In this document: piece after piece, positions 41,901 to 44,900 of the stretch
Position numbering within the stretch: position 1 is the first letter of the stretch
How the letters are laid out: every line of letters starts with the position of its first letter
Assembly: GCA_965113315.1 (NCBI GenBank)
Contig: OZ220364.1
DNA from: Podarcis vaucheri
Lineage: Eukaryota
Reading direction: 5' to 3' (one strand)
DNA: 64,000 nt
Translations under genes and position numbers: made by a program
Notes under the pieces: model-generated
What the model saw: only the letters and a program-made list of their open reading frames with translations
Databases searched by the model: none
Told to the model about the DNA's origin: nothing

Positions 41901-44900
41901 GGTAGCTTTTTAAAGACTGAATTATAAGTGTTAAGGTGTGTCTGTGTCTGAAGGTATGGGAAATGTGGCTTATACAATTCTTGCTGTTAGCTGCTGTCTA
42001 GATGATTCTCCTTATCTTCAAATCAGTGTGAGAGGTGCTGCTTCTGACGAAAACAGTGACAAAACTCTTGTCTTCTTTGTGGTTACTTTCACCCATCATA
42101 AATATTTCAAATAATAATCTATGTAGAGGCTTTTGTGGGGCTTCTTCAGTTAGCTCTTGAACTTTGCCTTCCACACATGCGCTGTAATCTCTAATATGTT
42201 TTTTTCTAGGTGGCGCTCACAGATAGTGGCTGATGTGGCTCGTTGCTTCACCTCAGTCTTAGTTTTATGATGTGTTTTGGTGAGGGCTGTTTTCTGAATT
42301 TTACAGGTTCTTCTGGCCCTGTACTGGTATGCAAGAGAGGAGTTTGACAAAATAATGGGCCTTGTGCATCAGTACACAATTGCCAAAATGTCAATGGAGC
42401 AAGAGATAAGGCATTTAGCAAATTGCTTTTCTAAAATAAATATAACATTTAATGTTTGTTTAGCCAGTAGTCAGAATATGTACCATTTTATTTACATTTG
42501 CTGTTGAAGAAAAAACGGCCTTTAGATTTATTCTTGTTTCTCTTTATTTTTCTCTCGCCTTTTCATAGGTCGAGTGACAAATCTTCGGAGAGTGACATAT
42601 GTTGTCCTTGATGAAGCTGATAGAATGTTTGATATGGGCTTTGAGCCTCAGGTGAGAATGGGAAAATAATTGTATTGTAGAGTTGGAAGACGTTATGTGT
42701 GTCTTTTTAGTTCAGACCTTGGGCCATATTGCAACCCTCCAGGTCTTTCTATCTGCTCCTTGGGACTCTCCCTAAACCACATCCTGGCCCTGCTTTGCAC
42801 CATCCTTGAGTGTTTTGCCTAGTGTCAATTTGTCCTTGAACACTAATAATGCTACTTGCTTGGCTGGATGGAAGATAGAGAGGGATGTTTAAAGAGGTGT
42901 AGAAACTAGCTTGCTGTACAAAGCAAAATTAATATTTGTTCTGCCCATTCTTGCCTCAACCCTTGCCCACGTGGCCTCTGAAAGATGCCTAAAAGTGATT
43001 GCAGCTCCCAAGACAAAAATAGTTCTTCCATCCATTGTTTAGAACATATGTGATTAATCTGAAATGGGTGCCTGGAAAGTTCACAGGCTTGGCTGACACA
43101 TACTTAGCCCTTTAGTGCTGCCTGCTTCCCAGTTCAGTAGACTATATACAAAATAGCATCAGGCAACAACAAAAGGGATGTATTTAAGAAACTCTAGAAG
43201 GCTTATGCTTGTGGCAAACGTATCAGAAAGATTAGCCACCACTATTGTAGACACTGAAGTTTCTTTCCTGTAGAATGTAGGAGGGTTGTTCTGCACTTTT
43301 TGTTGCAGAATTTGTACAGAAGTAGACCTGCAAAAATAATCCTTATAGGAGATTGTCCCATGCCCAACAGTAAACAATGTCCCCAATGTTCACTTGCTTT
43401 CCAATTACAATTTTCTTTCACTAAATGAAAAAGCACTGAGAGCATATTTCTATTTGAGTATTTGTACAACCACTGTAAAGTGTTGGGGTAAACCAGGCAT
43501 AGGCAATCTCATCCCTCCAGATGTTTTGGGACTACAATTCCCATCATCTCTGACCACTGATCCTGTTAGCTAGTTGATCATGGGAGTTGTAGTTCCAAAA
43601 CATCTGGAGGGCTGAGTTTGCCTATGCCTGCTATGTTCCATAGGCTTTTGCAAAAATGTTTGGTTACTAAAATGTTTCCCAGAACTGTCTATGTAAGGTT
43701 TTGCATTGTATTGCATGAGCTAAGATGGAAGTAATTTGATTTGGAGAATTGTGGTGTTAACCTTCCCTTTGAACTTGCTCTAGGTTATGCGCATTGTAGA
43801 CAATGTGAGACCTGATCGCCAGACTGTTATGTTCTCTGCTACCTTTCCTAGAGCCATGGAGGCTTTAGCTCGTCGAATATTAAGCAAGCCAATAGAAGTC
43901 CAAGTTGGTGGTAGAAGTGTCGTCTGCTCCGATGTGGAACAAAAAGTGGTAAGTTTCAGGAATATATATGCTTTCAGGAATATATCTGCTTGTTTGCAAC
44001 AAACTGCTCAAAACTCAGTTGTACATACAAAACTATACATCCAAGATGGCTTCAGCTCTGGATTATTTTGAAAAAAACAGACTTCTAAAATACATTCACT
44101 TTACAAAGTAGGGGATAGTGATTATGTTTATCCTTGTCTTACATGGCTTTGGCTAGACTGACAAAAATATCTTACAGTAGTGAGATTTATTTTTCCTTAT
44201 ACCAAGGATATTTATTTTTCTTTCCGCCAAGGTTGTTATTTGTATGCACAGTCTATGAGCTGTTGTGCCAGGAAGCTTATATTTAATGGTAGCTTCCTTT
44301 GCATGATTCTGACCAGCTCTTTGAATCCTAGCAGCACAGCTCTTTCTTGTACTTCTTTCAAAGCGGGGTGACTCCCCAACTCCCAAAAGCAAGAGAAGAG
44401 AAGAGCCTTGGCCCACTTGCTTAGATGCAGCTGTAGTTTTTCTTGCAAAATTTAGCAATTTGCACTATCAAAATTAAAGCAAGAATCATAGAGTTGAGAT
44501 GGAAGAGAACTGTATATTGACTTACTTGATTTTTACTTCCAATATGACTGGAAGCCAATTTAAGCAATTATCCGTGAGATGCTGTCTCCTTAAACTATGT
44601 TGTTCTTTCAGATTGTCATAGAGGAGGAGAACAAGTTTTTGAAGTTACTTGAATTATTGGGACATTATCAGGAACAAGGAGCTGTCATTATATTTGTAGA
44701 TAAACAAGAACATGCTGATGGATTGCTGAAAGACTTAATGAGAGCCTCTTATCCCTGCCTGTCTCTTCATGGAGGTAATGGACATTATTTAGTCATTACA
44801 GCTATATAACTAGAGTAATGAAACCTGAATAATGTCATTTCTCAACATCTGTATTATGTGTCCTCCACAGGTATTGACCAGTATGACAGAGATAGCATAA

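Follow-up and report, generated by a model that had tools for sequence, protein, structure and literature searches.

Poison exons in splicing-factor genes form a well-known class. Autoregulatory members have been described for SMNDC1/SPF30 (PMC11357089), SNRPB (PMC4109005) and RBM39 (PMC10477243). In SF3B1, a U2-associated gene, several weak non-coding exons share intron 4, where decoy action and intron detention are known (accessible part of PMC6097662). Plant DEAD-box helicase genes of the DRH1/RH46 type are limited by unproductive splicing through the DEAD element, a 20-bp hairpin over the 3' splice site (bioRxiv 10.64898/2026.01.23.701338, in its available text). The closest precedents come from DDX46 itself, which is reported to act at U2/branch-site recognition. 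They are the human isoform record D6RJA6, which ends after exon 12, and a mouse Ddx46 NMD-stimulating cassette exon of 117 nt (chr13:55808166-55808282) in the supplementary tables of PMC11188260 (NMD, nonsense-mediated decay). The mouse exon is only catalogued there, with no regulator assigned to it; Ddx46 goes unmentioned in the main text, and the available rows contain neither a second exon nor a non-mammalian orthologue.

Intron 12 of lizard DDX46 resembles each of these systems in part. With SMNDC1, SNRPB and RBM39 it shares a conserved premature-stop cassette, here predicted to be NMD-sensitive, in a splicing-factor gene, but feedback by the gene's own product has been shown for those three and is proposed here by analogy; moreover, DDX46 works as a DEAD-box ATPase when U2 engages the branch site and is not a sequence-specific RNA-binding protein. 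The likeness to SF3B1 lies in several weak exons within one intron and in hints of retention, with the difference that DDX46 intron 12 is a candidate for what is established there. Like the plant genes, DDX46 is a DEAD-box helicase gene that would be limited by unproductive splicing, whereas no stable fold comparable to the plant hairpin is predicted in its intron 12. We conclude that the intron 12 poison exon is almost certainly a real, conserved NMD exon and that this stop-codon exon likely throttles DDX46 output. The fuller proposal, that a conserved NMD exon is combined with feedback by U2/branch-site activity, DDX46's included, may or may not hold, and we regard it as evenly balanced. What is added here is the exon in reptiles and birds, its 117-nt form and a second exon; the mammalian orthologue was already catalogued, and that such an exon exists comes as no surprise. 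The initial annotation had left open whether the exon had been described before: its existence can be read from D6RJA6 and the mouse supplementary rows, and no main-text discussion was found in the accessible sources. We likewise found no literature description of a DDX46 poison exon or of DDX46 autoregulation, which subscription papers or other supplements may contain.

Anatomy of intron 12 in the lizard gene

The window, that is the whole 64,000-nt stretch of DNA analysed, contains the complete DDX46 (Prp5) gene, encoded on the + strand. In tblastn, the majority of the exons are 95-100% identical to a lacertid lizard protein. Exons were counted from the start exon at 23766, a numbering that we take to be that of human DDX46. 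Intron 12, 2,340 nt in length, separates the two splice partners of the poison exon, both placed by tblastn with lacertid DDX46. Upstream is coding exon 12 (40150-40228, + strand, 79 nt), which encodes helicase motif Ib and ends in phase 1; downstream is coding exon 13 (42569-42651, + strand, 83 nt), which encodes DEAD motif II and is followed by ten further coding exons.

Three other features of the gene were recorded. The segment 26110-26145 agrees without mismatch over 12 residues with an additional exon that a Zootoca DDX46 model places between its exons 1 and 2, and is possibly a lacertid alternative exon. Two intronic stretches (24250-24640 and 36150-36455) yield near-identical translations and are probably copies of one interspersed repeat. 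Within intron 12, only 41204-41580 folds better than shuffled sequence, three windows of 150 nt each giving z-scores between -2.5 and -3.5; it includes one 15-nt inverted repeat at 41516-41576, and the fold is perhaps a repeat remnant.

Every element of the exon described in the initial annotation is present in the intron. A branch-point-like heptamer at 42189-42195, whose predicted adenosine would sit only 16 nt upstream of the exon, is followed by a short pyrimidine (T) tract and TAG acceptor (42196-42209). A 70-nt body (42210-42279) then ends at a candidate internal GT donor (42280-42285), and a second GT donor (42327-42332) extends the exon to 117 nt (42210-42326), all on the + strand. Splicing of exon 12 to this acceptor gives G-G-A-H-R-stop, as had been translated, with a premature TAG at 42224-42226 (+ strand) in the exon-12 frame. 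This stop precedes the exon's own donor by 53 nt in the 70-nt form and by 100 nt in the 117-nt form, beyond the >50-nt distance that marks a premature stop for NMD, and the ten exons past exon 13 add to it. The earlier claim that the transcript would be an NMD target is further supported by the position of the stop ahead of motif II, where many exon junctions still follow, and by the cycloheximide response of the 117-nt mouse exon (supplementary tables of PMC11188260).

Splice sites flank the intronic exon, as they do in poison exons generally, and a search of the 1.6-Gb genome that passes over simple repeats gave a single match for the surrounding 42100-42450. The splice signature alone does not exceed chance: elsewhere in the introns of DDX46, four pseudo-exons pass the same thresholds in 15,950 bases, so that about 0.6 would be expected in an intron of 2.3 kb. 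Neither donor is strong: they match the U1 consensus at 5/9 (70-nt form) and 6/9 (117-nt form) positions, while 11 of 12 neighbouring donors match at 6-8/9. It is the cross-species evidence that raises the exon above chance, and from it we infer use of this exon, and of the second exon described below, in the lizard.

Counterparts in other vertebrates

A search for short DDX46 proteins, extended to the members of their clusters, brought up truncated isoforms that end just past exon 12. The exon-12 motif is present in 362 of the 427 proteins fetched in all; 308 of these continue normally, 16 end in a short tail, one continues into a second intronic exon and 37 have other tails. The 16 short-tail records read G-[D/G]-A-V-[R/K/S]-stop after exon 12. 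All are mammalian, placental as well as marsupial, and they include human D6RJA6, bats, rabbit, wombat and Tasmanian devil. The lizard tail has the same length as that of D6RJA6 and the other isoforms, which stop after an equal number of residues; it shares residues with D6RJA6 and agrees at four of five positions with rabbit and one bat. Intron 12 of the lizard contains 133 AGs, four of which would be followed by a five-residue tail and a stop; only the acceptor at 42210 resembles the mammalian tail (3/5 residues), the other three scoring 0.

Two other origins of the mammalian tail were considered and rejected. The tails of pig P0250 and polar bear P0120, which come from intron read-through, differ from the short tail, which therefore stems from a separate exon; skipping of exon 13 was dismissed on reasoning, as an out-of-frame start of exon 14 cannot place V at that position of the tail. 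Fish tails ending in A-V-R or A-L-R-R (P0071, P0205 and P0106) may be projection artefacts and were left out of the count. The junction of exon 12 to the poison exon is documented in the human isoform record. UniRef entries make up most of the 16 mammalian records and are possibly projections of the one human transcript, whose exon-3 skip most of them share; they indicate genomic capacity and not independent RNA evidence. The truncated mammalian isoforms (P0136, P0237 and relatives) lack the RS-rich exon 3, some of them exons 3 and 4, so that a transcript with the short tail is alternatively spliced at exon 3 as well. The short tail is absent from all squamate proteins fetched. Among the members listed in further cluster look-ups there were neither additional poison-exon tails nor truncated isoforms from squamates.

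RNA evidence for the exon comes from mouse. Of 24 sequencing runs compared by words sampled from the sequence, 14 contained all of them and are possible sources of this DNA, six RNA runs contained shares of 0.12-0.18, two runs of another organism 0.56 and 0.41, and two none; no weight is placed on these runs. According to the supplementary tables of PMC11188260, inclusion (PSI) of the 117-nt cassette was raised by cycloheximide from 0.27 to 0.70 at day 6 and from 0.23 to 0.36 at day 24, accompanied by an increase in Ddx46 expression of 0.94 (day 6) and 0.60 (day 24) log2. The table rows give no flanking exons, and the placement of the cassette in intron 12, like its likely orthology to the lizard exon, is drawn from length and gene. 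The length bears directly on the choice of donor. The initial annotation had preferred the 70-nt form, a preference that finds no outside support; the second lizard donor gives 117 nt, exactly the length of the mouse cassette in those tables, and is favoured for that reason. The 117-nt form (42210-42326) is the best supported overall, through mouse exon length, mammalian tails and the bird tail described below, whereas the 70-nt form is a reading of the sequence. When 16 non-standard tails were slid across the window, three had their best match in intron 12, namely the bird record and the teleost gene models P0081 and P0225. For both teleosts the best match spans the 117-nt donor, with 8/14 identities in P0225. 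The intron-12 tail scores of 30-42 overlap the chance top scores of other tails (up to 36), the two fish are not independent, and their donor match was spotted post hoc. As a lead, the 117-nt donor may be conserved as far as bony fish.

None of the five unannotated human DDX46 junctions in the supplement of PMC8091538 falls within intron 12. That supplement also lists an unannotated, unconserved cassette in the early part of human DDX46 (chr5:134768131-134768252, about 121 nt), seen in EJC-bound RNA only. No relevant DDX46 row was found in the accessible supplements of PMC13247117, PMC7726792 and PMC12809107; the supplement of PMC8980049, in its available part, reports a DDX46 alternative 5' site unrelated to the poison exon, and two of three listed DDX46 rows of PMC11162794 concern another 3' site.

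Conservation of the exon in other lineages is seen at the protein level, in 16 mammalian records and one bird record. An ultraconserved element is one in which human, mouse and rat show no difference over 200 bp or more. Indirect evidence indicates that the exon is not of this kind: the mammalian tails vary, rodents included (D/G; R/K/S), and the flank PhastCons value of the mouse exon is 0.825 (PMC11188260, supplementary tables).

The bird record led to a second exon that the single-exon picture of the initial annotation had overlooked. P0253, a bird-like protein 98.5% identical to passerine DDX46, lies on a 2,372-nt contig and crosses eight exon junctions in one frame, and is therefore taken to derive from spliced RNA. 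It carries 36 residues past exon 12, of which 29 match a join of lizard exon 12, a 49-nt stretch at 40818-40866 (+ strand; exon X) and the poison exon. In the part that corresponds to X, 14 of 17 residues of P0253 agree and the register fits the junction with exon 12; in the part that corresponds to the poison exon, read in a shifted frame, 15 of 19 agree and the stop is the same. Among about 128,000 six-frame window positions, the X match (12/15 identities) is the sole one above 6 and the poison-exon match (15/19) the sole one above 7. In these alignments, the P0253 tail shows that the poison-exon body is conserved.

Exon X is a frameshifting cassette with a purine-rich, weak acceptor and a donor matching at 7/9 positions. 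Included alone it leads to a stop in exon 13, and together with the poison exon to a stop at 42268-42270. The junctions linking exon 12, X and the poison exon are documented by this one bird record, and assembled contigs of its type may join junctions of different molecules. A search aimed at X returned 63 protein matches, none covering X. X is new here and appears in no other record searched; with the poison exon it makes up a tandem module in intron 12, in the manner of SF3B1 intron 4. A 525-bp segment including X (40519-41044) has a second copy at 88% identity on the minus strand of another contig (C37, L002 9467-9990). In that copy the acceptor is altered and X has a gap of 1 nt, with matches in 46/49 columns of X against 354/406 in the outer flanks; the 20 kb around it contain repeat-like pieces only and no other DDX46-specific sequence.

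Control of exon inclusion

Inclusion of 42210-42326 or 40818-40866 would direct the lizard mRNA to predicted NMD, as either exon would end the protein or shift its frame no later than motif II, leaving many junctions still to follow. We propose that inclusion would rise with U2/branch-site-recognition activity, DDX46's own included, and would thereby act as a feedback throttle. This feedback is favoured because the exon has weak ends, a short tract and a branch adenosine only 16 nt away, because of the step at which DDX46 acts, and because of the precedents of SMNDC1, SNRPB and RBM39. By analogy with those genes, autoregulation by DDX46 is plausible.

The same NMD exon might instead be switched by other splicing factors in a developmental or physiological programme, independently of DDX46 level. 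We consider this rather unlikely, despite mouse data that lean toward it. In the supplementary tables of PMC11188260, Ddx46 is one of 87 'facilitating' NMD exons whose genes fall in neuronal differentiation (tau -0.94), and exon skipping correlates positively with Ddx46 expression in that process (r = 0.73). Inclusion therefore goes up while expression of the gene declines, a pattern not predicted by negative feedback alone. The PTBP1 column, which reads n/a for the Ddx46 exon in the same tables, was also counted on the side of other factors. The trend is not simple, however, with cycloheximide PSI lower at day 24 than at day 6, and amniote-wide conservation in a housekeeping spliceosome gene would fit homeostasis. 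Control by other factors and feedback by DDX46 can also coexist.

Another explanation makes the exons mainly decoys that hold intron 12 unspliced as a detained intron, NMD of the included form being minor. The records that speak for it are Logan-derived proteins, 33 of which, out of 58 picked by hand, span at least 3 junctions at 80% identity or more (25 were dropped). Nine of the 33 terminate where exon 12 does, eight of them with read-through-like tails (bird, frog and fish). The others stop at exon 10 (1), exon 11 (1), exon 17 (2), mid-exon (7) or the true end (13). Three more fish records also stop at the exon-12 end. In addition, the frog-like P0320, which covers exons 5-12, and P0330, which begins with exon 13 and runs to the end, share a longest contig of 6,649 nt, as expected of one transcript retaining intron 12, and two weak exons in one intron recall SF3B1 intron 4 (PMC6097662, accessible part). 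Intron 12 may thus often be retained in fish, frog and bird. The sample is biased, however, by searches aimed at exons 10-12 and short proteins, and the shared contig is deduced from length only. The mouse exon is moreover not mainly silent, reaching 0.70 with cycloheximide (PMC11188260, supplementary tables), and DDX46 goes unmentioned in the available main text of the decoy paper (PMC6097662) and in the accessible ccRCC supplements (PMC12809107). On balance we find a mainly decoy role quite improbable.

It is very unlikely that the lizard exon is a pseudo-exon, a chance resemblance or decayed relic that is not spliced in. Signals of equal quality do arise by chance at about 0.6 per intron of this size, and no squamate record with inclusion was among those found; against this stand the agreement of acceptor, stop position and 117-nt length with mammals and the bird-tail match at 15/19, alone above 7 among about 128,000 positions. 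Hardly credible at all is conservation for some other reason, with exon use a by-product of a structured or small non-coding RNA or of a helicase-sensing hairpin: plants do place such a sensor over a 3' splice site (bioRxiv 10.64898/2026.01.23.701338, available text), but single-sequence folding around the exon (z +0.8 to +1.8) and around X (z +0.4) was no more stable than that of dinucleotide shuffles, giving no stable stem over the alternative splice site, and no Rfam match was found in 23000-42160, a range that ends upstream of the poison exon.

Implications for DDX46 dosage

The conserved NMD exon with feedback through U2/branch-site activity can be extended to a bolder model, which we judge unlikely as a whole. 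In this model, intron 12 would house a feedback module of two exons that dates back at least to the divergence of birds and lizards and whose main exon goes back to bony fish; the 49-nt and 117-nt exons would lead to detention or NMD, and a weak, close-set branch site would read the ATP-dependent loading of U2 by DDX46. If it holds true, a branch-site proofreading helicase would set its own dose via a branch-site sensor. The poison exon itself offers an antisense handle on DDX46 dose. A conserved and highly included exon (0.70 under NMD block in mouse; PMC11188260, supplementary tables) would also be a natural reporter of limiting DDX46/Prp5 activity at the vertebrate branch site, and its use as such bears on the debate, as represented in the accessible literature, over the role of DDX46 in SF3B1-mutant missplicing.
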